Source: Candidatus Poribacteria bacterium (GTDB taxonomy: Bacteria > Poribacteria > WGA-4E > WGA-3G). Taken from it: a stretch of 64,000 nt of DNA. Position numbers and translations under genes: made by a program. The stretch lies in NCBI GenBank assembly GCA_963665235.2, contig CAXXLX010000001.1, forward strand, positions 4,256,001-4,320,000, read 5' to 3'. The notes under the pieces were generated by a model. That model ran no database searches. It saw only the letters and a list, made by a program, of their open reading frames with translations, and had not been told where the DNA came from. Positions 51,889 to 62,158 of the stretch are shown piece by piece (positions within the stretch are counted from its first letter, which is position 1; each line of letters starts with the position of its first letter).

Positions 51889-53001
51889 CTAGTTCGCTTC
51901 CCATGGCGGTATGTCCCCAACTGGGGGTGGGGCAGGGAATCGGCTGGAGACATCGACCGGTTTTCGGAGCTCAGACGATTCAATAATCCGTTCGCAAACC
52001 TCTAGGACATGCCGAGCTTGGGCACCGTTGCAACGGGGTGCGCGATTGTTTCTAATTGCGTCTGCGAAATCGGCTACGCCTTTTCCCCAATCAAGTCCCG
52101 TATATGCCTTCGCTGGAGAGGGTTCGTCTGTCCAGCTGGTTTTTGCTGTGAATTTTTTGATGCCGCGGCCATCATCGTGCGCCTGAATTGAGAATCCACC
52201 ATGGGTGCCATGTATCTCATAAGGCGGAATGTGTGAGGTTACGGTGAAGCTGTGATAGATAAATCCATGGGCTGCTTGCGCTTCCGGTTGGTCAAATTCA
52301 AGGACAGCAAACCCGTGGTCCTTTTCAGTCACCTCAAATTCGGTACCTTGACGCGGGCCTTGGTGTAATGTCCGCTTAGGGACAGCAACTCTGGCAAATC
52401 CGTGAACTGTCTTCACAGGTGCAATCATCGTTGTCATTGCGGTTAAGGGATAAGGGGCAACATCTCGAAATGGACCTGCATGTATCAAAAATGCGTCGGC
52501 ATTTGGGTGCCAATATTCTAAGGGGCCCCCGAAGTTGCCAAGTGTTGAAATGACGGTCCCAATTTCGCCATCACGTATCCGTCTCCAGACGTTCTGCTGG
52601 ACGTACCCAAGTATGGCGGAGGGGGCACACGCTAATTTCAATTCCATAGCTTCGGCGGTTTCGACGAGTTCGTTGGCTTCATCGGTGCGGATAGAAATCG
52701 GTTTCTCTGAATAGACATGCTTTCCGGCTTTCAAGGCTGCAAGCGAGATGGGATAATGTGAGATGTGGATGGTCAAATTGACAATTGCTTCTACGTTTGC
52801 ATCCTCTAGAACGGCTTCAAAGGATGGATAGACTTTTCCACCGTTTCTCTCAGCGAGTGCTGATGCCCGTGCTTTGTCCTGGTCATAAAAGCCGACCAAT
52901 TCGATATGGTTTGGATATGCTTGGCAGCGGGGCTGATAACCGCCAGCTGCAATCATGCCGCATCCGACAATAACGGTTCGGAGCGGGGTTGTATTAGCCA
53001 T
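51889..53001 (-). CDS. Gfo/Idh/MocA oxidoreductase
   Basis: IVGCGMIA, AGKHVYSEKP and WHPN motifs. Confidence 0.9.
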   Translation of the reverse strand: MANTTPLRTVIVGCGMIAAGGYQPRCQAYPNHIELVGFYDQDKARASALAERNGGKVYPSFEAVLEDANVEAIVNLTIHISHYPISLAALKAGKHVYSEKPISIRTDEANELVETAEAMELKLACAPSAILGYVQQNVWRRIRDGEIGTVISTLGNFGGPLEYWHPNADAFLIHAGPFRDVAPYPLTAMTTMIAPVKTVHGFARVAVPKRTLHQGPRQGTEFEVTEKDHGFAVLEFDQPEAQAAHGFIYHSFTVTSHIPPYEIHGTHGGFSIQAHDDGRGIKKFTAKTSWTDEPSPAKAYTGLDWGKGVADFADAIRNNRAPRCNGAQARHVLEVCERIIESSELRKPVDVSSRFPAPPPVGDIPPWEAN

Positions 53002-53113
53002 TTTGCTTCTCCTTTTTTTTAGTCCTATACAGCATACCAGTTTTTCAACTAGAGGTCAAGAAGAAAATTAGCTCACTAGCGATTGGCAAGATGTTGTGAT
53101 TCTAATGAGGAAC

Positions 53114-53444
53114 AAGACTTACGCAGCGCGTTGATAAATCCTTCTGATAGTGGGATTTAGAGGGAGTCCTAGCGGGCGGGGGGACCCCGCCCAGAGGAGC
53201 GGGAAACTGTTTGCCCGAATACTGAGGGGCCTGCTAAATTTGCGTAAGTCCTGATTATGTTATACCATTTTTATTAATTATTCTATCATTACCGGTTGTT
53301 GGAAATGAAACGGAGAACGGAAGACACAAACTGGAAGTTTATGCTACGATAAAGAACACAAACTGGAAGTTTATGCTACGATAAAGAACACAAACTGGAA
53401 GTTTATGCTACAAGAAAGAGACATTTTCAATTAGAAATGGTATA
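53114..53444. repeat. Two adjacent MITE/REP elements
   Basis: 53114-53253 has GACTTACGCA termini, with a partial inverted copy at ~27060-27142. 53261-53444 is homologous to 44399-44804. Confidence 0.7.
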
Positions 53445-53514
53445 ACTAGTCATAATGGGATGGAGGCTGCCTGAGGAATATCGGCAGCCTCTTCTGATTT
53501 GTAACCGAACTTAA

Positions 53515-53656
53515 ACTCTGGGTCGAGAGAGTGTGTTATCATAATGATTAGGTCGCAGGTTCGAGCCCTGCCAGCAGTCTGAGCATGTGTCATGTGAAGC
53601 CTACTGTAGCTCAGTGGAAGAGCAAATCAAAATGCATTCCAATCCTTATCCAGAGT
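53515..53656 (+). ncRNA. yrlA: YrlA-like Y RNA, module A1
   Basis: Terminal stem ACTCTGGGTCGAG / CTTATCCAGAGT with bulged C. T-arm GCAGGTTCGAGCCCTGC precedes D-arm TAGCTCAGTGGAAGAGC (permuted tRNA order). rsr is nearby. Confidence 0.88.
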
Positions 53657-53665
53657 CGCATTTGT

Positions 53666-53740
53666 GCGGGCCGAAGTATTGTGTTATCCTCCGTTTACTC
53701 TCGGGGCCGGAATCCCGAGCGCAATACACACCTTGTCCGC
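53666..53740 (+). ncRNA. Short Y RNA-like module B1
   Basis: GCGGGC-C-GA / TTGTCCGC Ro-type stem, upper stem GTATTGTG/CGCAATAC, internal hairpin CTCGGGG/TCCCGAG. Confidence 0.75.
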
Positions 53741-53762
53741 CATGAAGAAATATTTTTTTAAT

Positions 53763-53792
53763 TTGACAACAGACACCTAAATGTGATATAAT
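53763..53792 (+). promoter_or_regulatory. Consensus sigma70 promoter upstream of Y RNA pair 2
   Basis: TTGACA-18bp-TATAAT. Confidence 0.7.
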
Positions 53793-53793
53793 A

Positions 53794-53945
53794 ACCCAAG
53801 TTGCTACTTATAAGTTTTTAGACCTGGAAACACCGTCTTTAATGAAAATATGCTGATAATTAGCTAATATTTGTCCGGTTCACTTCCAATTCGCACACAA
53901 ATATGCACAATCTGGAAGATTATGCTACTATGTGGCAACTTAGGT
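53794..53945. mobile_element. 152-bp MITE (inverted copy of 19156-19307)
   Basis: TIRs and 7-bp TSD TATAATA. Confidence 0.85.
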
Positions 53946-54030
53946 TATAATATATAATTGCTGTATGAAAATGGATGTGCGCTGCCTAAGAAATATTGGC
54001 AGAGCCTCCTGATTCGAAGCCCAACTTAAA

Positions 54031-54157
54031 CTCTGGGTCGCGAGAGTGTGTTACCCCAGCGCAGGTTCGACTCCTGCCAGTAGACCAAGCTTCATGCGAA
54101 GCCTACTGTAGCTCAGTGGTAGAGCAAAACTTCAACGCATTCTGTTCTTATCCAGAG
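54031..54157 (+). ncRNA. yrlA: YrlA-like Y RNA, module A2
   Basis: CTCTGGGTCG / TTATCCAGAG stem, T-arm at 54061-54077, acceptor-like CAGTAG/CTACTG, D-arm TAGCTCAGTGGTAGAGC. Confidence 0.88.
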
Positions 54158-54167
54158 CCATATTTGT

Positions 54168-54225
54168 GCGGGCCGAAGTATTGTGTTATCTTTGAAAGAG
54201 CATTCGCAATACACATCTTGCCCGC
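54168..54225 (+). ncRNA. Short Y RNA-like module B2
   Basis: GCGGGCCGAAG ... CTTGCCCGC with upper stem GTATTGTG/CGCAATAC. Confidence 0.75.
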
Positions 54226-54273
54226 CACCGATTTATAACTGAAGAATTTAAGGTGAAAATATAGGGAGGAACA

Positions 54274-54504
54274 ATGAAAACGTTTTCGATACAAACACTT
54301 ATCGCGCTATTCCTCATCAGCGGCATACATTTTGTTTTCGCAGATTGTCCTGATGAGCAACTAAAGGCTGAAGGTTCGTTTTTCATCAATGAAGCGGATG
54401 AGGCCTATATCTACGGGCAGGCTTCAGTAAGCAATCTCACCTATTGGCCCGCCAAGAACATTGAGCAAGCCCATTGGCCCGCCCTTCTCTTTAAGAGAGC
54501 TTAG
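54274..54504 (+). CDS. Small secreted hypothetical protein or gene fragment
   Basis: GGAGG RBS and signal-peptide-like N-terminus. Probably truncated or frameshifted. Confidence 0.4.
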   Translation: MKTFSIQTLIALFLISGIHFVFADCPDEQLKAEGSFFINEADEAYIYGQASVSNLTYWPAKNIEQAHWPALLFKRA

Positions 54505-54662
54505 ATTAGTAGTGACCACTCCGTCAGTTGCTGGCACTACTATGAAAAAGAAAAAGAGACTTTCACCGTTTATTGGGCATACCGGCTGGTTGTCGATGAG
54601 GATGCACGGTATCAGGCGAATCCGCGATATGGTCCTATGATTCTGCTGTAGGAGAAAAAACA

Positions 54663-55637
54663 ATGCGCACCCTTTTTATTATCAGCATACTCTTCATCAG
54701 TATCGTGCCCGTTGCCTCCGCAAAAATCGTGTGGATGGCGTTCTGGGAAATCTGTGTCATGGACGATGATGGCAGCAACCGCCAAAGATTGACACATAAT
54801 GATCGCTATGACACGAAACCACGCTGGTCACCCAATGGAAAGTGGATCGTTTTTCAGGGCGAACAACCTAAGGAAACCAATGAACAAAATCATGATCTGT
54901 TCCTCATGAATATAGATGGAACACAGATACGGAAACTTACCACCTACACAGGGCTTGATGTAAATCCAGACTGGTCCCCCGATAGTCAACACATAGTCTT
55001 TACAAGTACGCGAGGTGATGTGACGAGTCTTCATATCCTGGATGTTGAGACACAAGATGTCCGCGACCTCACGCGCACCCTAAAGGGGCAGGCCGCGGAT
55101 AGCGCGGCTTGGTCTCATGATGGGAAACAGATTGCCTATGTAGGCAAGACTCTAAACCCCTTCACATCCGCCATCTACATCATAGGGGCAGATGGTAAAA
55201 ACCCACGTGCCCTCTTCCGCCCCGTGGTTGCACAGTACCATTCTCCCGACTGGTCGCCGGATGGGAAACATATTCTGTATGGCGAAAAAAAAGCCGTAGG
55301 CAAAATGCGGATTTCAGATAAAATCGTCATTCGCACCGTTAATGGGAATTTGGTAAAGGAATTAGAAATGCCGGCGCTTGCGAAATGGTCAATACAAGCC
55401 GCTTGTTGGATGGGGACGAAACATGTTCTCATTGATGCCATAGAAGACTTCAAAGCCGCTGATGGGGGGCAGAGTGATATCTATCGGTATACACTATCCA
55501 CCGATGAAATCGTCAATCTCACGAAATCAGATAGAACTAACGACGGTTTTCCGGATTGGATAGATGATGGGGCACTAGCTGTTTCTCCTGTGAGCAAACT
55601 CGCCATCCGATGGGCACAACTCAAGCAAATCCATTAA
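54663..55637 (+). CDS. Secreted TolB-like (PD40) beta-propeller protein
   Basis: Repeated P.WSPDG..I.F units. C-terminal VSPVSKLAIRWAQLK. Confidence 0.88.
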   Translation: MRTLFIISILFISIVPVASAKIVWMAFWEICVMDDDGSNRQRLTHNDRYDTKPRWSPNGKWIVFQGEQPKETNEQNHDLFLMNIDGTQIRKLTTYTGLDVNPDWSPDSQHIVFTSTRGDVTSLHILDVETQDVRDLTRTLKGQAADSAAWSHDGKQIAYVGKTLNPFTSAIYIIGADGKNPRALFRPVVAQYHSPDWSPDGKHILYGEKKAVGKMRISDKIVIRTVNGNLVKELEMPALAKWSIQAACWMGTKHVLIDAIEDFKAADGGQSDIYRYTLSTDEIVNLTKSDRTNDGFPDWIDDGALAVSPVSKLAIRWAQLKQIH

Positions 55638-55659
55638 GACAGTATCACAACTAAGAAGG

Positions 55660-56103
55660 TTGATTAACAGTAGCAAAAAATCTGTGTTTTTCAGAACATA
55701 AGCTTATGTTACTAAACCTTTTAGGCAATTAAACGTCTAAATTAATGTTTTACATCTGAATGTTCCGCGTTGTGAGTTGTGTTACTTAAACACCATGTAC
55801 AGAGTGCTTAGCGGGCATCCGCCCAATGTTTGCCTGGGTGGGCACAACCTCTGACAACGAAAGTAGCGAAAACCAAGCTTTGATGGAAATAGCAGGCGGA
55901 AATTGTGATAAAAACCTGCTTGGTAGTGTGACTTCGAAGCACGTAAAAAACATCGAACCTTCACAGAAGAAGCAATAAGCGTTCGCTGCCTTGTGTAGCG
56001 AACTTTGGGAGATGACCCCTGGCTGTATTCGTACAGCTTGCAAAACGTGTGTGGAAGTGAAATACATAGTATTCCACGGAAATATACAGTTTAATATCAT
56101 CGG
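55660..56103 (+). ncRNA. Large structured ncRNA, copy 1 (ROOL-like candidate)
   Basis: Duplicated at 56487-57422 with compensatory changes in at least two helices. No credible ORF. The ROOL assignment is from recalled motifs only. Confidence 0.75.
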
Positions 56104-56208
56104 TAACTGATGCCAACACTCACCCAACTGCGCGATGATGCGTTTTCAGCGTCCCAAGAGGCACATAACCGCATGAAACGGGAGATGGCTATCTACAAAA
56201 ATGAACTT

Positions 56209-56340
56209 AATTCTGGGTCGCGGGGATGTGTTACCGGGTCGCAGGTTCGACTCCTGCCAGTAGACCGAGCGTCATGCGAAGCCTACTGTAGCTCAGTGGT
56301 AGAGCACAATATTCAACGCATTCTGTTCTTATCCAGAATT
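56209..56340 (+). ncRNA. yrlA: YrlA-like Y RNA, module A3
   Basis: AATTCTGG/CCAGAATT terminal stem, compensatory relative to A1. T-arm then D-arm. Confidence 0.88.
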
Positions 56341-56347
56341 TTATTTG

Positions 56348-56433
56348 GCGGGCCGAAGTCCTACGTTAACTGCCCGTATAGTAATACACAAAGTGTATCT
56401 ATACTTAAATATCGTAGTACACACCTTGCCCGC
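56348..56433 (+). ncRNA. Short Y RNA-like module B3
   Basis: GCGGGCCGAAG ... CTTGCCCGC with a long internal hairpin GTATAG..ATACAC/GTGTAT CTATAC. Confidence 0.75.
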
Positions 56434-56472
56434 TGCCTTAAAAAAACGTTAAAAATATAAACCAAACTTAAA

Positions 56473-57519
56473 CTCTGGGTCGAGGATTGATTAACAGTAG
56501 CAAAAAACCTCTATTTTTCTAGGAACATAAGCTTATGTTCCTAAACCTTTTTGAGAACTTGACATACTCTCCCAGCTAAAGCAAGGGAGATTCTTTTAAA
56601 AAGTTCCGCTACGCGTTAGCTATTGGATTGTGGTTTTCAGACGTGTGAACGTCAACGGAGATGCTTGGGCTGTTCCAAGTCTTACTGCCCCTAACTCAAA
56701 GGAATGCCCTTCGTGCTTCGCACCTTCTTTATGCGTTGTGAATCAGTGCTTTGGTATCCAATGCAGCATGACCCGTCTTTTGGATACCGAAAGCATTGCA
56801 CAAAAATGTGGATATTGACTGGGTATCGCCAGAACATCAGCACACAACCCTACCATAGGTTGAGGTTCGGAACTTCAACATTGGTGGCGTTGAAGGTGGT
56901 AATCCGAACCACTGATGATATATATATTATACCACATTTTAATGCAAAAGTCAAATTAAAATTTTAGCTCATGCGCCGCTACTACATCCCCCAGCTAAAG
57001 CACGGGGGTTTTGTAGCGGAAGACTTGATAAATTTATGTTTTTAATGTTTTACATCTGAATGTTCCGCGTTGTGAGTCGTGTTACTTAAACACCATGTAC
57101 AGAGTGCTTAGCGGGCATCCGCTCAATGTTTGCCTGGGTGGGCATGACCTCTGACAACGAAAGTAGCGAAAACCAAGCTTTGATGGAAATGAGAGGGCAA
57201 AGAAAACGTGAAAAAACCTCTCTGGTAGTGTGACTTCGAAGCACAATAAAAACCTCGAATATTCACAGTATAAGCGTTCGTTGCCTTGTGTAGCGAACTT
57301 TGGGAGATGACCCCTGGCTGTATTTATACAGCTTGCAAAACGTGTATGGAAGTGAAATACCTAGTGTTCCACAGGCTTCAGGCTACAAGCCTGCTCTTCA
57401 ATATACAGTTTAATATCATCGGCGCACATCATCGGAAGCAAGCAGGTTCGACCCCTGCCGGCGCACTTGTGTTTGACGCGCAAGTTTGCCGAGCAATGTC
57501 CGCTGTTTCTTATCCAGAG
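56473..57519 (+). ncRNA. Y RNA module A4 enclosing copy 2 of the large ncRNA and a T-arm
   Basis: 5' strand CTCTGGGTCGAG at 56473 and 3' strand CTTATCCAGAG at 57509-57519. They flank the large RNA (56487-57422) and GCAGGTTCGACCCCTGC (57442-57458). Confidence 0.7.
56559..57027 (-). mobile_element. Non-autonomous IS200/IS605-family element inside large ncRNA copy 2
   Basis: Hairpins CTCCCAGCTAAAGCAAGGGAG and CCCCCAGCTAAAGCACGGGGG. On the minus strand it follows TTTAT and ends TCAA. Removal restores the palindrome AACATAAATTTATGTT. Confidence 0.82.
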
Positions 57520-57528
57520 ACACATTTG

Positions 57529-57593
57529 GCGGGCCGAAGTCCTACGTTAACCTATATTTATCCCATATAACCCGTAGGACACACCTTGCCCGC
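57529..57593 (+). ncRNA. Short Y RNA-like module B4
   Basis: GCGGGCCGAAG ... CTTGCCCGC with upper stem GTCCTACG/CGTAGGAC. Ends 21 nt before the rsr ATG. Confidence 0.78.
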
Positions 57594-57614
57594 TACATTT
57601 CAAAAGGTGACATC

Positions 57615-59261
57615 ATGAGCTATTTAGGGAAATATTCTCCATTGCATCCACATCAGCGGCAGCCGTTGGACGAAAAACAGGTCCAAAATTCTGCCGGCGG
57701 ATACGCCTATCCTGTCTCTATCTGGACAAACTTAGACCGGTTTCTCATTTTAGGGACCGAAGGCGGCTCCTATTACGCCACAGAACAGGATTTGACGAAG
57801 GTCAATGTCGATGCTGTCAAGCAGTGCATTGCCGAGGATGGGGTTCAAGTTGTTGAGCGGATACGTGAGATTTCTGTCTCCGGGCGCGCCCCGAAAAATG
57901 ACCCCGCATTATACGCACTAGCCCTTGCCTTTACCCATGGCGATACGGCAACGAAACGAAAAGTGGAAGAGGTCTTCTGTGATGTCGCACGTATCGGCAC
58001 ACACCTATTCAACTTTGTGGTGTTTGTAGACGGTATGCGTGGCTGGGGCAGGTCGCTACGCCGATTAGTCGGCAACTGGTACCGCACGAAGGACGATAAC
58101 ACCTTGGCGTATCAGGTCCTGAAATATCAATCTCGGAACAGTTGGCGGCATGCGGATGTCCTTGCAAAGTGCCACTACGGTGAAAACCGGGGCATCTACC
58201 GTTGGATAAAAGGGCTTGACACGGATAAGCGTATTGTGCATCGCACCCTACAAAATGAAGAAAAGACAGCTACCGTTTACGAGGCCACCGACGCTTTGCC
58301 TGAATTGCTCGCCGGATATGAGGACCTGAAACGCACAGAGAAACGCGTGGATGTTATCCAGCTCATTGAGAAACATCAATTCACCCACGAAATGGTGCCG
58401 AACGAGTGGAAAAATGAAACGGAAGTATGGGCGGCGTTGCTACAGAACATGCCCGTTATGGCAACGGTGCGAAACCTCGGTAAGATGACGCAAATCGGGT
58501 TGTTGAAACCTTTTGGAGCAGAGGTTCAAACCGTGCTAGAAAGACTCTCCGCTGAGGCGATTCAACGTTCGCGCATCCATCCTATCCAAATCCTTATGGC
58601 GTTGATAACATACAAGGCAGGTAAGGGAGTGAGAGGCAGCTTAACCTGGGAGCCCGTGCCGCAGATTGTTGATGGGTTGGACGCTGCGTTTTATATGGCG
58701 TTCGATAACGTTGAACCGAGCCAAAAGAACACGCTCCTAGCACTTGATGTCTCTGGGTCAATGGCAGGCAGAACTGTGGCAGGATGTGAAGGCTTAACAC
58801 CGCGTAATGCGTCCGCTGCCATGGCACTCGTAACCGCACGCACGGAACCGCATTATCATATCTTCGGGTTTTCAGAAGGTTTTGTGACCCTGCCGATTAC
58901 AGCAAACGATACGTTGGATAGTGCTATTAAAGCTGTCTCTGGATTGCCCTTTGATGGCACCGATTGCGCTCTCCCCATGCTGTATGCATTGGAACATAAA
59001 CTACAGATAGACACCTTCGTCATCTATACAGATAATGAAACGTGGTATGGCGACATTCATCCGAAAACAGCATTGGACAACTATCGGCAAAAGATGGGGC
59101 GACCCGCAAAGTGTGCTGTTGTCGGGATGGTGGCGAACGACTTCTCTATCGCTGACCCAGAGGATGCGGGCATGCTCGATTTTGTCGGGTTTGATACCGC
59201 TACACCTGCATTGCTCAGTGATTTCGCTAAAGATGCAGACATCTCCGATGAAACGGCGTAA
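57615..59261 (+). CDS. rsr: Ro60/TROVE-domain RNA-binding protein with vWA domain
   Basis: NSAGGY, LDRFLILGTEGGSYY, GWGRSLRR, KYQSR..W.H.D, RIHP, DVSGSM (MIDAS), YTDNETW and GFD motifs. Start at ATG after AAGGTGA. Confidence 0.95.
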   Translation: MSYLGKYSPLHPHQRQPLDEKQVQNSAGGYAYPVSIWTNLDRFLILGTEGGSYYATEQDLTKVNVDAVKQCIAEDGVQVVERIREISVSGRAPKNDPALYALALAFTHGDTATKRKVEEVFCDVARIGTHLFNFVVFVDGMRGWGRSLRRLVGNWYRTKDDNTLAYQVLKYQSRNSWRHADVLAKCHYGENRGIYRWIKGLDTDKRIVHRTLQNEEKTATVYEATDALPELLAGYEDLKRTEKRVDVIQLIEKHQFTHEMVPNEWKNETEVWAALLQNMPVMATVRNLGKMTQIGLLKPFGAEVQTVLERLSAEAIQRSRIHPIQILMALITYKAGKGVRGSLTWEPVPQIVDGLDAAFYMAFDNVEPSQKNTLLALDVSGSMAGRTVAGCEGLTPRNASAAMALVTARTEPHYHIFGFSEGFVTLPITANDTLDSAIKAVSGLPFDGTDCALPMLYALEHKLQIDTFVIYTDNETWYGDIHPKTALDNYRQKMGRPAKCAVVGMVANDFSIADPEDAGMLDFVGFDTATPALLSDFAKDADISDETA

Positions 59262-59494: not shown

Positions 59495-60121
59495 TTAATC
59501 TGAATAGTTGCATGAGACTTCTTTGTTGAAAAAAATCGGGTCATGCCAATAACATCCGACACACGTTCCATTGTATAATCCATTACCACGCACTTGGCTA
59601 ACTTGATAACCTAAGCGTTTCGCGTCAAAACGCTGCCCTGTCTCTCGACACTCAACACAATGTTGTCTCTTGGCATAATTAGCAGCCTTCGATAGTGGTT
59701 GAAAATCATCAAGTGTTACCTGATTTGCGTCACTCAGCCTCGGGTCGTCCAGTCTTCCGTCTTTATGGTCACACTCTGGACCACTTGTTCCCAATACAAC
59801 ACAGCGTTGTGCCCTCACCTCCTCTCTAATGTTATTGGGTATTGGCTTTTCAGTAACCGGGACTTTTCTAAAGCCTTGCAACTCAACGTGAGTTATTTTA
59901 CCTCTGCCTTCAGGGTGGCGGCGAATATTGTAATATCGTGATAAACTACCGTCTTTGCGTATCCAATCACCCCCGTTTCCAAACTGGAGTGATGCATATT
60001 TTCCTACAAATTCTGTAACTGGAACTGGACAGCTGAAACCGAGATCATCTGGTTTAGCAAGCTGAATAAACAGCGCAGGCTTGCTTCCTTTTCTAAACTG
60101 AGAGCCTTGATCGTTACTCAT
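59495..60121 (-). CDS. NlaIII/IceA1-like HNH restriction endonuclease
   Basis: LF..LA.PD..G.S, GNGG.W.R, DHKDGR.DD, DFQPL, KRQ.C..C..TG.RFDA and CVGCY..DP motifs. Confidence 0.8.
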   Translation of the reverse strand: MSNDQGSQFRKGSKPALFIQLAKPDDLGFSCPVPVTEFVGKYASLQFGNGGDWIRKDGSLSRYYNIRRHPEGRGKITHVELQGFRKVPVTEKPIPNNIREEVRAQRCVVLGTSGPECDHKDGRLDDPRLSDANQVTLDDFQPLSKAANYAKRQHCVECRETGQRFDAKRLGYQVSQVRGNGLYNGTCVGCYWHDPIFFNKEVSCNYSD

Positions 60122-60815
60122 TCTCAATCCTCTCTTGTGAAATTTTCGCATAATTGGAATCTATATCACATCCTGCAAACCTTCGGAAATTTCTGACGGC
60201 AGCAACACCTGTAGTTCCTGCTCCAAGGAATGGGTCCACAACAAGATCGCCCTGGTTACTGTGCTTGCGCACTAAATCCTCAAATAACTCTAAGGGTTTT
60301 TGTGTAGGGTGTTGTCTTTTACCCTTATGTCGAGGGATTGGATATTCATAGATACCAGAGTCATACTGGCTATGGAAAGTAGGTGTACCAACTTTGACCC
60401 CTGCAACAGCCATTTCTCGACTGTTAGAAAGATAAGTAGAGCGCATATTTAACGGGACAGGGTTGGTTTTCTGCCAGATAATCTGGCGAATCATTTTAAA
60501 TCCTGCTAACTCCATAGCCTCTTTTACCTTACCTATCTTCCAAAGATCATACCACACGATGGCAGTTCCGCCACGACGCAAGGATTTATAAAACACCCTT
60601 GCCATCGCTTCGAGATTTATCTCAACGTGATCCCATACACCGAAGTCCATACTAACGGCGAATTTCTTTTCACCGTTCACCACTGCCGAAAATCCTGTTT
60701 TTTTACTAATGCAATATGGTGGATCTGTTAAGATAAGGTCTACTGATCCAGCCGGTAACGAATCCATAAATTCATGATAATCAGATACTTTGACGCTAAA
60801 TTCTGTAAAGGGCAT
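60114..60815 (-). CDS. Beta-class N4/N6 DNA methyltransferase
   Basis: TDPPY, HPTQKP and DPFLGAGTT motifs. Stop overlaps the endonuclease start. Confidence 0.9.
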   Translation of the reverse strand: MPFTEFSVKVSDYHEFMDSLPAGSVDLILTDPPYCISKKTGFSAVVNGEKKFAVSMDFGVWDHVEINLEAMARVFYKSLRRGGTAIVWYDLWKIGKVKEAMELAGFKMIRQIIWQKTNPVPLNMRSTYLSNSREMAVAGVKVGTPTFHSQYDSGIYEYPIPRHKGKRQHPTQKPLELFEDLVRKHSNQGDLVVDPFLGAGTTGVAAVRNFRRFAGCDIDSNYAKISQERIENE

Positions 60816-61229: not shown

Positions 61230-62065
61230 TCGCGTGCACAGCACGCTCCTACAGAGGAAAAGAGGGCGCGTGCACAGCACGCTCCTACAGAGGAGAAGAG
61301 GGCGCGTCACAGCACGCTCCTACAGAGGAAAAGAGGGCGCGTCACAGCACACTCCTACAGAGGAGAAGCGGTCGCGTGCACGCGTACAGAGGAGAAGCGG
61401 TCGCGCACAGCACGCTCCTACAGAGGAGAAGAGGGCGCGTGCACAGCACGCTCCTACAGAGGAAAAGAGGGCGCGTCACAGCACGCTCCTACAGAGGAGA
61501 AGAGGGCGCGTCACAGCACGCTCCTACAGAGGAAAAGAGGGCGCGTCACAGCACACTCCTACAGAGGAGAAGAGGGCGCGTCACAGCACGCTCCTACAGA
61601 GGAAAAGAGGGCGCGTGCACAGCACACTCCTACAGAGGAGAAGAGGGCGCGTGCACAGCACGCTCCTACAGAGGAAAAGAGGGCGCGTGCACAGCACACT
61701 CCTACAGAGGAGAAGAGGGCGCGTGCACAGCACACTCCTACAGAGGAAAAGAGGGCGCGTGCACAGCACACTCCTACAGAGGAAAAGAGGGCGCGTGCAC
61801 AGCACGCTCCTACAGAGGAAAAGAGGGCGCGTGCACAGCACACTCCTACAGAGGAGAAGAGGGCGCGTGCACAGCACACTCCTACAGAGGAAAAGAGGGC
61901 GCGTGCACAGCACACTCCTACAGAGGAAAAGAGGGCGCGTGCACAGCACGCTCCTACAGAGGAGAAGAGGGCGCGTGCACAGCACGCTCCTACAGAGGAA
62001 AAGAGGGCGCGTCACAGCACGCTCCTACAGAGGAAAAGAGGGCGCGTCACAGCACACTCCTACAG
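61230..62065. repeat. Tandem array of ~25 REP-like 32-33-bp units
   Basis: GAGGGCGCGT(G)CACAGCAC(G/A)CTCCTACAGAGGA(A/G)AA repeated head-to-tail with no unique spacers. Confidence 0.92.
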
Positions 62066-62158
62066 AAATGACCCTGAAGATGTTTAAATATTAGATTGCA
62101 CAATTAAGGTGAAATGTGGTATGATAACAGCATCAACGTCTAAAGGAGGGATCTAGCA

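Follow-up and report, generated by a model that had tools for sequence, protein, structure and literature searches.

An rsr locus of Candidatus Poribacteria with an unusual number of Y RNA genes and nested mobile-element insertions

We analysed a 64,000-nucleotide stretch of the genome of a sponge symbiont, a Candidatus Poribacteria bacterium (assembly GCA_963665235.2, contig CAXXLX010000001.1, positions 4,256,001 to 4,320,000), referred to here as the window and numbered from its first nucleotide. It carries rsr, the gene for an orthologue of the Ro60 protein, preceded by an array of modules resembling Y RNAs. An original prediction made from the sequence alone had described the array as eight such modules interleaved with two large ornate RNAs, all serving a single Rsr protein. 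Our analysis shows that the region is an ordinary YrlA/Y RNA/rsr locus, set apart by an unusual copy number and by nested insertions of mobile elements. A YrlA RNA and a second Y RNA next to rsr are a known arrangement; what is new is its occurrence in this lineage, the number of copies and the disruption of a Y RNA gene by a transposon. Very probably, the Y RNA genes of a Poribacteria rsr locus were duplicated in tandem and were then invaded by mobile elements, the large RNAs being an IS607 derivative.

The rsr gene (57615–59261) is intact and encodes a protein of 548 amino acids that matches the Pfam families vWA_Ro60 (2.1e-61) and TROVE (1.2e-35). All of the Y RNA modules of the array lie upstream of rsr and, like rsr itself, on the plus strand, as do the leader hairpin, the promoter facing A2, the 1.96-kb segment and both large RNAs described below. 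The modules are of two types, a longer YrlA-type RNA (A) and a short canonical Y RNA (B). The predicted four co-oriented A+B pairs were recovered as three complete A modules and four B modules on one strand, with the fourth A split by 937 nt. The ATTTG linker that had been noticed between A and B is present in each pair. The sequence AACTTAA, said to stand ahead of every A, was found before A1, A2 and the stub of A4, while A3 carries GAACTTAAT. The 3′ end of B4 is separated from the ATG of the intact rsr gene by 17 nt rather than the 21 nt first given, and direct reading of that gap revealed a Shine-Dalgarno-like AAGGTG. A hairpin leader, also read directly, was found upstream of A1 (53462–53493, GGAGGCTGCC...GGCAGCCTC; repeat family D8), and it recurs before A2 (about 53978–54008) and before a fifth pair elsewhere in the genome. 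ARAGORN found no tRNA genes in the window.

The A modules were identified as YrlA-type RNAs by homology, architecture and covariation. When the Rfam models named in the original prediction were run, YrlA was recovered at scores below its gathering threshold, and Y_RNA, ROOL and GOLLD gave no match; at gathering level no Rfam family matched anywhere in the window. With a relaxed threshold, YrlA (RF02553) matched A1 to A3 at E values of 2e-5 to 7.5e-3 and was the sole meaningful Rfam family there. We also built two models of our own, R1 from A1–A3 and R2 from B1–B4. A1 (53514–53658), which represents a subtype with an extra AUAAUGAU hairpin, scored 127.3 bits with R1 and 27.5 bits with Rfam YrlA. 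The corresponding values were 156.7 and 31 bits for A2 (54029–54160), and 152.7 and 36.4 bits for A3 (56209–56341), which was matched by the full YrlA model at an E value of 2e-5. In the Rfam alignment of A3 (model positions 1–114), the T arm (GCAGG-TTCGACT-CCTGC), an acceptor-like stem and the D arm (GCTC-AGTGGTA-GAGC) follow one another in the expected order within a two-part closing stem. The A modules thus possess the tRNA-like module of YrlA, in which the Ro-binding stem encloses a T arm with a GGTTCGA loop, an acceptor-like stem and a D arm (AGCTCAGTGGTAGAGC), and they share the adjacency to rsr that characterises YrlA RNAs. The minimum free energy (MFE) fold of A2 consists of T arm, acceptor-like stem and D arm as in the YrlA architecture (z −3.55). 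The A modules bear the Ro-motif variants GTCGAGAG, GTCGCGAG and GTCGCGGG, which fit the GNCGAAN0-1G motif only in part. Among 57 distinct A sequences, helices 3, 4 and 7 were 97–100% paired. Overall, 93.5% of the alignment cells held standard pairs and 33 of 37 pairs had changed on both sides, a result equalled by 0 of 500 shuffles and far from the 30–45% of slid controls. Within the array, A3 differs from A1 and A2 by compensatory changes in both stems.

The B modules share a fold (z −2.0 to −4.2) in which a closing stem of 6 bp (GCGGGC/GCCCGC) is followed by an internal loop, then by a second stem of 8 bp and, at the apex, by a variable part. B1 (53664–53744, R2 79.3 bits) contains GCCGAAG and has a GC-rich branched apical part; B2 (54166–54229, 76.8 bits, z −3.69) has a small apical loop; B3 (56346–56437, 73.6 bits, z −3.20) has a long AU-rich apical hairpin; and B4 (57527–57597) scored 87.6 bits with a z of −4.17. 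GCCGAAG is present in the 5′ strand of all four and agrees with the Ro-binding motif GNCGAAN0-1G, which has been described on the 5′ strand of the long stem of bacterial Y RNAs (PMC4201824). The second stem of B1 and B2 differs from that of B3 and B4 by compensatory changes at four pairs. The pairing in the B alignment was likewise well conserved, with 98.2% of cells holding standard pairs and 11 of 14 pairs changed on both sides (0 of 500 shuffles equal; slid controls 27–49%). Model matches to A and B are separated by 4–5 nt, a gap that lies inside the ATTTG linker. We take the B modules to resemble human Y1.

The original prediction had called for a comparison of rsr neighbourhoods across Poribacteria, and this comparison bore out the A+B unit. 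A search with the Rsr protein returned 54 loci, of which 17 belong to Candidatus Poribacteria or to metagenome-assembled genomes (MAGs) whose Rsr is 73–84% identical to the protein studied here, which places the organism among the poribacteria. R1 matched directly upstream of rsr at all 17 of these loci (two copies at 7, one copy at 10) and R2 at 16 (two copies at 8, one at 8; none found in L032), although the upstream flanks are short at several loci (1.6–3.8 kb), so that the copy counts are lower bounds. The A+B unit upstream of rsr is conserved across Poribacteria. A blastn comparison of the flanks with those of the 17 related loci showed conservation of nothing but the Y RNA modules and rsr; at the DNA level it did not recover any synteny of the neighbouring genes. 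Outside this group, R1 also matched upstream of rsr at 22 of 38 non-poribacterial loci (E ≤ 0.01), 14 of them mycobacterial (Mycobacterium, Mycolicibacterium and Mycobacteroides). At one locus of a Chloroflexota MAG (L040, 2222–2552), two R1 matches lie downstream of rsr and not upstream. Within the family, the presence of A tracks that of rsr by genus: in genus g3, Rsr was found in 9/9 and A in 16/17 genomes, and in genus g6, Rsr in 0/9 and A in 0/17.

It is the copy number that distinguishes the locus. A-type RNAs were found in 16 of 40 other family genomes, as one copy in 7 and two in 9 and never more, so that the 4 intact A genes of this genome compare with 0–2 in those 40. The original prediction of a multi-Y-RNA Ro60 locus was therefore upheld, with three A and four B modules intact in the array and a copy number above that of all 40 family genomes searched. 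The remaining intact A belongs to the fifth A+B pair, which lies on the minus strand about 78 kb from rsr (G000:C1:4231443-4231677; locus L085/L128). This pair is nearly identical to A1/B1 and is preceded by a TTGACA-N17-TTACAAT promoter and by the shared leader hairpin, and its B is without the 3′ strand of the closing stem. The near-identity of A1 and A5, the A of the fifth pair, means that their duplication is recent. The fifth pair lies between argininosuccinate synthase and an AAA_33/Zeta_toxin-like ATPase that is accompanied by a small open reading frame (ORF).

A related strain offered a second view of the array. In two metatranscriptome runs from one study, a contig joins 54094–54239 directly to 56202–56303, and the related strain therefore has A, B and A contiguous, without the 1.96-kb segment that separates B2 from A3 in the window (54240–56201). 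This segment holds an ORF of 76 amino acids (54274–54504) and a PD40 beta-propeller protein identified by Pfam (54663–55637), both with an N-terminus that reads directly as signal peptide-like, as well as the first copy of the IS607-derived element discussed below. The contig covering the 3′ part of A2, B2 and A3 reached depths of 69 and 79.5, compared with about 0–10 over rsr, and this higher depth hints at abundance of the Y RNAs.

These data bear on the possibility that the extra copies are for the most part duplicates in decay, left by repeat-mediated rearrangement, and that only the rsr-proximal RNAs function. The region is indeed packed with high-copy repeats, A4 is broken, the B of the fifth pair is truncated and the A1/A5 duplication is recent. 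Nevertheless, we consider this explanation unlikely, as pairing among the paralogues has been kept by compensatory changes (in both stems of A3 relative to A1 and A2, and at four pairs of stem 2 between B1/B2 and B3/B4), the A2-B2-A3 contigs in the RNA libraries of the related strain are deeper than rsr, and a perfect consensus promoter faces A2. The latter, a sigma-70-like TTGACA-18-TATAAT (12/12) at 53763–53792, is directed toward A2/B2 and abuts a high-copy repeat. At the other extreme, Rsr may work with at least seven distinct expressed Y RNAs, namely three YrlA subtypes and four short ones, each tethering a different partner in an exchangeable adaptor set that grows by tandem duplication. 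An extra hairpin or the D arm sets the YrlA subtypes apart, and the four short Y RNAs carry unrelated apical domains; even so, we offer this proposal tentatively and think it improbable.

The fourth A module is in two pieces. Its 5′ strand alone (ACTCTGGGTCGAGG, 56472–56485) precedes a cut at GG made by a transposon, and the remainder (57423–57525), which has no D arm, supplies the 5′ strand of stem 2, the T arm and a long hairpin, together with the 3′ strands of both stems. The halves are 937 nt apart, with nested mobile DNA between them. When they were joined by script, the resulting sequence was column-for-column collinear with the intact A RNAs of relatives, and by direct reading stem 2 (GCGCACAT/ATGTCCGC) retains 7 of 8 pairs. 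A4 is a divergent YrlA-type gene without a D arm that has been interrupted by a transposon, and the insertion point of the intervening element is exactly TCGA^GG (caret, junction) within A4.

The interrupting sequence is one of the two supposed large ornate RNAs. Both copies of the structured RNA of about 450 nt are present as predicted, and they are 89–97% alike in shared blocks, but only the first is continuous. Copy 1 (55658–56103) consists of a left end, a structured 5′ domain of about 220 nt and an omega-RNA-like domain that corresponds to the tnpB 3′ end and right end and terminates in ...ATCATCGG. Copy 2 (56486–57422), which sits in A4, is itself interrupted by a 484-nt repeat (56552–57035).

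Several lines of evidence identify both copies as a gene-less derivative of an IS607-family element. The first 40 nt or so and the last 100–125 nt or so of the large RNAs recur elsewhere in the genome about 1.75–1.8 kb apart (L010–L016), and the full elements that share these ends encode a MerR-HTH/Resolvase serine recombinase and a TnpB (Pfam, L010), the latter with HTH_OrfB_IS605, OrfB_IS605 and Cas12f1-like TNB domains. The boundaries, read from 10 left and 10 right ends, are ...GA(A)^GGTTGATTAACAG... at the left end and ...TTAATATCATCGG^ at the right end; the flanks are unrelated. Like IS607 elements, which are described as having neither inverted repeats nor target duplication (10.1101/2023.11.20.567912), the large RNAs are without terminal inverted repeats or target duplication and have GG at both junctions. 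A tblastn comparison with TnpB and the other ORFs recognised only the last 18–33 TnpB codons in the large RNAs, which makes them gene-less derivatives. By the same comparison, the 5′ domain is no recognisable coding remnant. We conclude that the large RNAs are copies of a gene-less IS607 derivative and not a component of the Ro60 system.

The RNA encoded by this element is truly structured. When a copy from another genus that is 66% identical was included, RNAalifold predicted 92 pairs, 27 of them compensatory. The 5′ domain, located at 55735–55960 and 57035–57255 in the window, is a covarying multi-stem RNA: among nine distinct sequences, 27 of 39 pairs had changed on both sides and 98.8% of cells were paired. 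A model of this domain gave 17 matches in 5 of 112 family genomes (2–6 per genome). The domain itself matched no Rfam family and is absent from the full copies that encode TnpB. The 3′ portion of about 130–150 nt, in contrast, shares sequence and structure with the tnpB-3′/right-end region of those full copies, with 14 of 44 pairs compensatory. Since this region is where omega RNAs are encoded, we call the 3′ domain omega-RNA-like; as for omega RNAs, whose guide begins at the flank, the structured RNA overlaps the 3′ end of tnpB and the right end, and each copy has a different 3′ flank. The PATEs of the IS200/IS605 group are described as elements without genes that carry omega RNAs for a TnpB supplied in trans (PMC10055086). 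Sister copies of the element have a promoter-like TTGACA in the left end.

The original prediction regards the large RNAs as ornate RNAs of the Ro60 system, processed along with the Y RNAs and carried by Rsr. In its favour are their co-orientation within the array, their evident structure (27 of 92 predicted pairs compensatory) and the fact that the A4 stems would formally close around one of them. This proposal is almost certainly wrong. The ends of the large RNAs are IS607 left and right ends common to elements with TnpA and TnpB. In the DNA flanking the 17 related rsr loci, blastn gave no match to the element. Other copies of about 437–440 nt with the same ends occupy unrelated sites in four other genomes; in the four contexts scanned, their neighbours are an oxidoreductase, an IS1595 transposase, a heptosyltransferase and an FGGY kinase. 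The related strain is without copy 1 between B2 and A3. ROOL and GOLLD had no match at E ≤ 10 in 52900–57700 or in 55640–56125 and none at gathering level in the window, and no other Rfam family matched the large RNAs. Coverage of the large RNAs in the RNA libraries was low or attributable to full IS607 copies (a loose end at 56057), and is therefore uninformative on their transcription.

An IStron was also considered for the large RNAs and rejected. A 486-nt query gave no Intron_gpI match even with lax filters, and the 5′ flanks end in ...GA(A)GG, that is, in G and not U. The 5′ splice site of a group I intron needs a U at the end of the 5′ exon.

We also weighed whether A4 could still function with its insert, either through precise excision by the serine recombinase or by its Y stems closing around the inserted RNA and tethering it to Rsr. 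Excision within the IS607 family is described as scarless (10.1101/2023.11.20.567912), both halves of A4 are undamaged and stem 2 keeps 7 of its 8 pairs. Folding of the A4 stems is made unlikely, however, by an insert of 937 nt that contains a second, nested element, and even without the insert the MFE fold of the joined halves is not the Y fold. A4 may have been degenerate already, given that it has no D arm, and splicing of the insert finds no support in a group I intron signal or in the 5′ flank, which ends in G. A functional A4 is accordingly very unlikely in our judgment.

The repeat nested in copy 2 is a multi-copy, non-autonomous element of 484 nt with eight other near-full copies (89–99% identity) and many end-only matches. 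Its ends are common to elements of about 1.4 kb that encode only a TnpB (332 amino acids, L127). The TnpB of these elements is on the opposite strand, so that any omega RNA of the 484-nt repeat would be on the minus strand here. The DNA around pairs 1 and 2 is also largely high-copy repeat, 91–99% identical: about 53260–53445 is represented by at least 40 copies and holds a 3 × 32-nt tandem array that is variable in number, with more units at other loci, and about 53787–53950 is represented by at least 43 copies. A ACACAAACTGGAAGTTTATGCTAC motif upstream of A1 and A2 was examined as a sigma-54 promoter and rejected, as its spacing, read by eye, is GG-N8-GC. The sigma-54 consensus spacing is GG-N10-GC. 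Because the CTGGAAGTTTATGCTAC motif lies in a repeat with at least 40 copies, it is not a regulator specific to the Y RNAs. Further upstream, the 145 nt at 53112–53256 fold into several stems closed by one of 11 bp (−60.7 kcal/mol, z −3.9, equalled by 0 of 200 shuffles); the stretch had no Rfam match, and portions of it are found again at a few sites elsewhere in the genome.

Such repeats hamper assembly, and the related strain, in which 54239 is joined to 56202, is arranged differently. Both facts speak for a mis-assembly stacking strain variants of a locus with one or two pairs, the outcome that had been named as fatal to the original prediction. Independent short DNA contigs of run X1 nevertheless bridge three of the junctions: 54097–54585 (B2 to the ORF), 56000–56301 (the right end of copy 1 to A3) and 56277–56586 (A3, B3, the 5′ part of A4, the left end of copy 2 and the nested repeat). 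The alternative 54239/56202 joint had a depth of 0 in both X1 and X5. No contig bridging the 57422/57423 junction was among the pieces listed. Furthermore, the genome consists of 4 contigs and the window lies inside one of 4.36 Mb, and what separates the paralogues is structured, compensatory change and not single-nucleotide polymorphism of the strain-level kind. Mis-assembly is thus highly improbable.

The locus most likely arose and works as follows. The conserved unit is a YrlA-type RNA, in which the Ro-binding lower stem closes the tRNA-like part, followed by a short canonical Y RNA. By analogy, each unit or run of units may be transcribed as a precursor, the rsr-proximal units together with rsr, and this precursor would be cut into A and B. 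Each RNA would then bind Rsr via its lower stem, and the tRNA-like or apical parts may recruit partners such as PNPase, as they do in Deinococcus and Salmonella. A4 was struck at GG by the gene-less IS607 element of about 450 nt, which was later struck in turn by the 484-nt TnpB-type repeat. Mobilisation of the IS607 derivatives probably depends on TnpA(S), and the TnpB of full copies probably uses their RNA in trans. Their presence in the array is probably explained by target preference (CGA^GG within the Ro-binding motif) combined with the repeat-rich region, and not by Ro60 biology. It is less likely that the Y RNA genes are a preferred landing site of the derivative by virtue of the CGA^GG in the Ro-binding motif, with the guide targeting the uninterrupted allele.

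A number of observations weigh against this account. The YrlA scores of A3, A2 and A1 are all below the gathering score of 69, and Rfam Y_RNA did not match the B modules at E ≤ 10. Compared with A2, the folds of A1 (z −1.69, 9 of 200 shuffles as good) and A3 (z −2.13, 5 of 200) are less distinct from shuffled sequences, and the D arm does not form in the MFE fold of A3. The covariation alignments of both A and B were fitted to our own models, which favours the structure. For A4, the joined MFE fold differs from a Y-like fold, and the argument from collinearity thus rests on the alignment. A recognisable promoter was not found for every pair, and a scan for sigma-70 promoters and terminators was no better than shuffles (10 found versus 9.0 ± 3.6). 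The RNA evidence consists of contigs, which carry neither ends nor strand, from one study of a related strain that is 94–98% identical, and DNA carry-over is possible. Finally, binding to Rsr and processing of A and B are predicted by analogy, and the role of the 3′ domain as a guide for TnpB is proposed from its position and homology.

The closest described relative of the arrangement is that of Mycobacterium smegmatis, in which a tRNA-like YrlA and then a shorter YrlB are encoded 5′ of rsr on its own strand and are reported to arise by processing of a single precursor and to be bound by Rsr (Chen et al., 2014, PMC4201824). The locus described here likewise has a YrlA-type RNA and then a shorter Y RNA, both 5′ of rsr and on the same strand, but the unit is present four times with a fifth pair elsewhere, and B carries the full GNCGAAG motif but no T arm of the kind reported for M. 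smegmatis YrlB. With rsr-yrlBA-rtcBA of Salmonella Typhimurium it shares the Ro-binding stem and the order in which T arm, acceptor-like stem and D arm follow, as well as two Y RNAs adjoining rsr. It differs from that locus in scoring below the Rfam gathering threshold, in having no rtcB or rtcA beside rsr among the 10 ORFs scanned around it, in the spacing of the motif upstream of A1 and A2, which is not that of sigma-54 promoters, and in the order of A and then B upstream of rsr. The B modules are comparable to Yrn1 and Yrn2 of Deinococcus radiodurans and to metazoan Y RNAs: they consist of stem, internal loop and stem, measure about 60–90 nt, have a variable apical loop and retain both recognisable strands of the Ro-binding helix; unlike those RNAs, they had no Rfam Y_RNA match. 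In Deinococcus and Salmonella, a Y RNA is described as tethering Rsr to PNPase (PMC4201824). The bacterial Ro60 systems described there have about two Y RNAs, although the list of more than 250 species in that source may include loci with more (PMC4201824). A full-text literature search found no paper treating Poribacteria together with Ro60.

The inserted element can be compared in the same way. Like IS607 elements and the gene-less PATEs, it shares its ends with elements encoding TnpA(S) and TnpB, carries a structured RNA over the tnpB 3′ end and right end, and occurs in multiple copies at unrelated sites (PMC10055086; 10.1101/2023.11.20.567912). Unlike them, it has the additional covarying 5′ domain of about 220 nt not found in full copies and encodes no protein, and its guide role is predicted. 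IStrons resemble it in having IS607-type ends around a structured RNA, a 3′ omega-RNA region and G as the last base, but differ in the group I intron, which had no match here, in the 5′ flanks, which here end in G, and in the promoter-like TTGACA in the left end of sister copies.

Two further features lie beyond rsr. Directly downstream, 59495–60815 on the minus strand encodes a type II restriction-modification pair, consisting of an ICEA-like restriction endonuclease (PF05315, 1.5e-42) and an N4/N6 DNA methyltransferase (PF01555) that overlap each other. At 61231–62066, 23.7 spacerless tandem copies of a 36-nt unit (93% matches) lie inside a mechanical ORF of 337 amino acids.

These findings extend Y RNAs to Poribacteria. 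The supposed new class of Ro60-associated ornate RNA falls, its actual identity being a gene-less IS607-family element, and this derivative is of some interest in its own right: it bears a promoter, lacks TnpB and carries a long structured RNA whose 5′ domain is undescribed. With four to five YrlA/Y RNA pairs, whose apical parts have diverged and whose Ro-binding stems have been preserved through compensatory changes, the genome is a natural test bed for whether different Y RNAs provide Ro60 with different partners.

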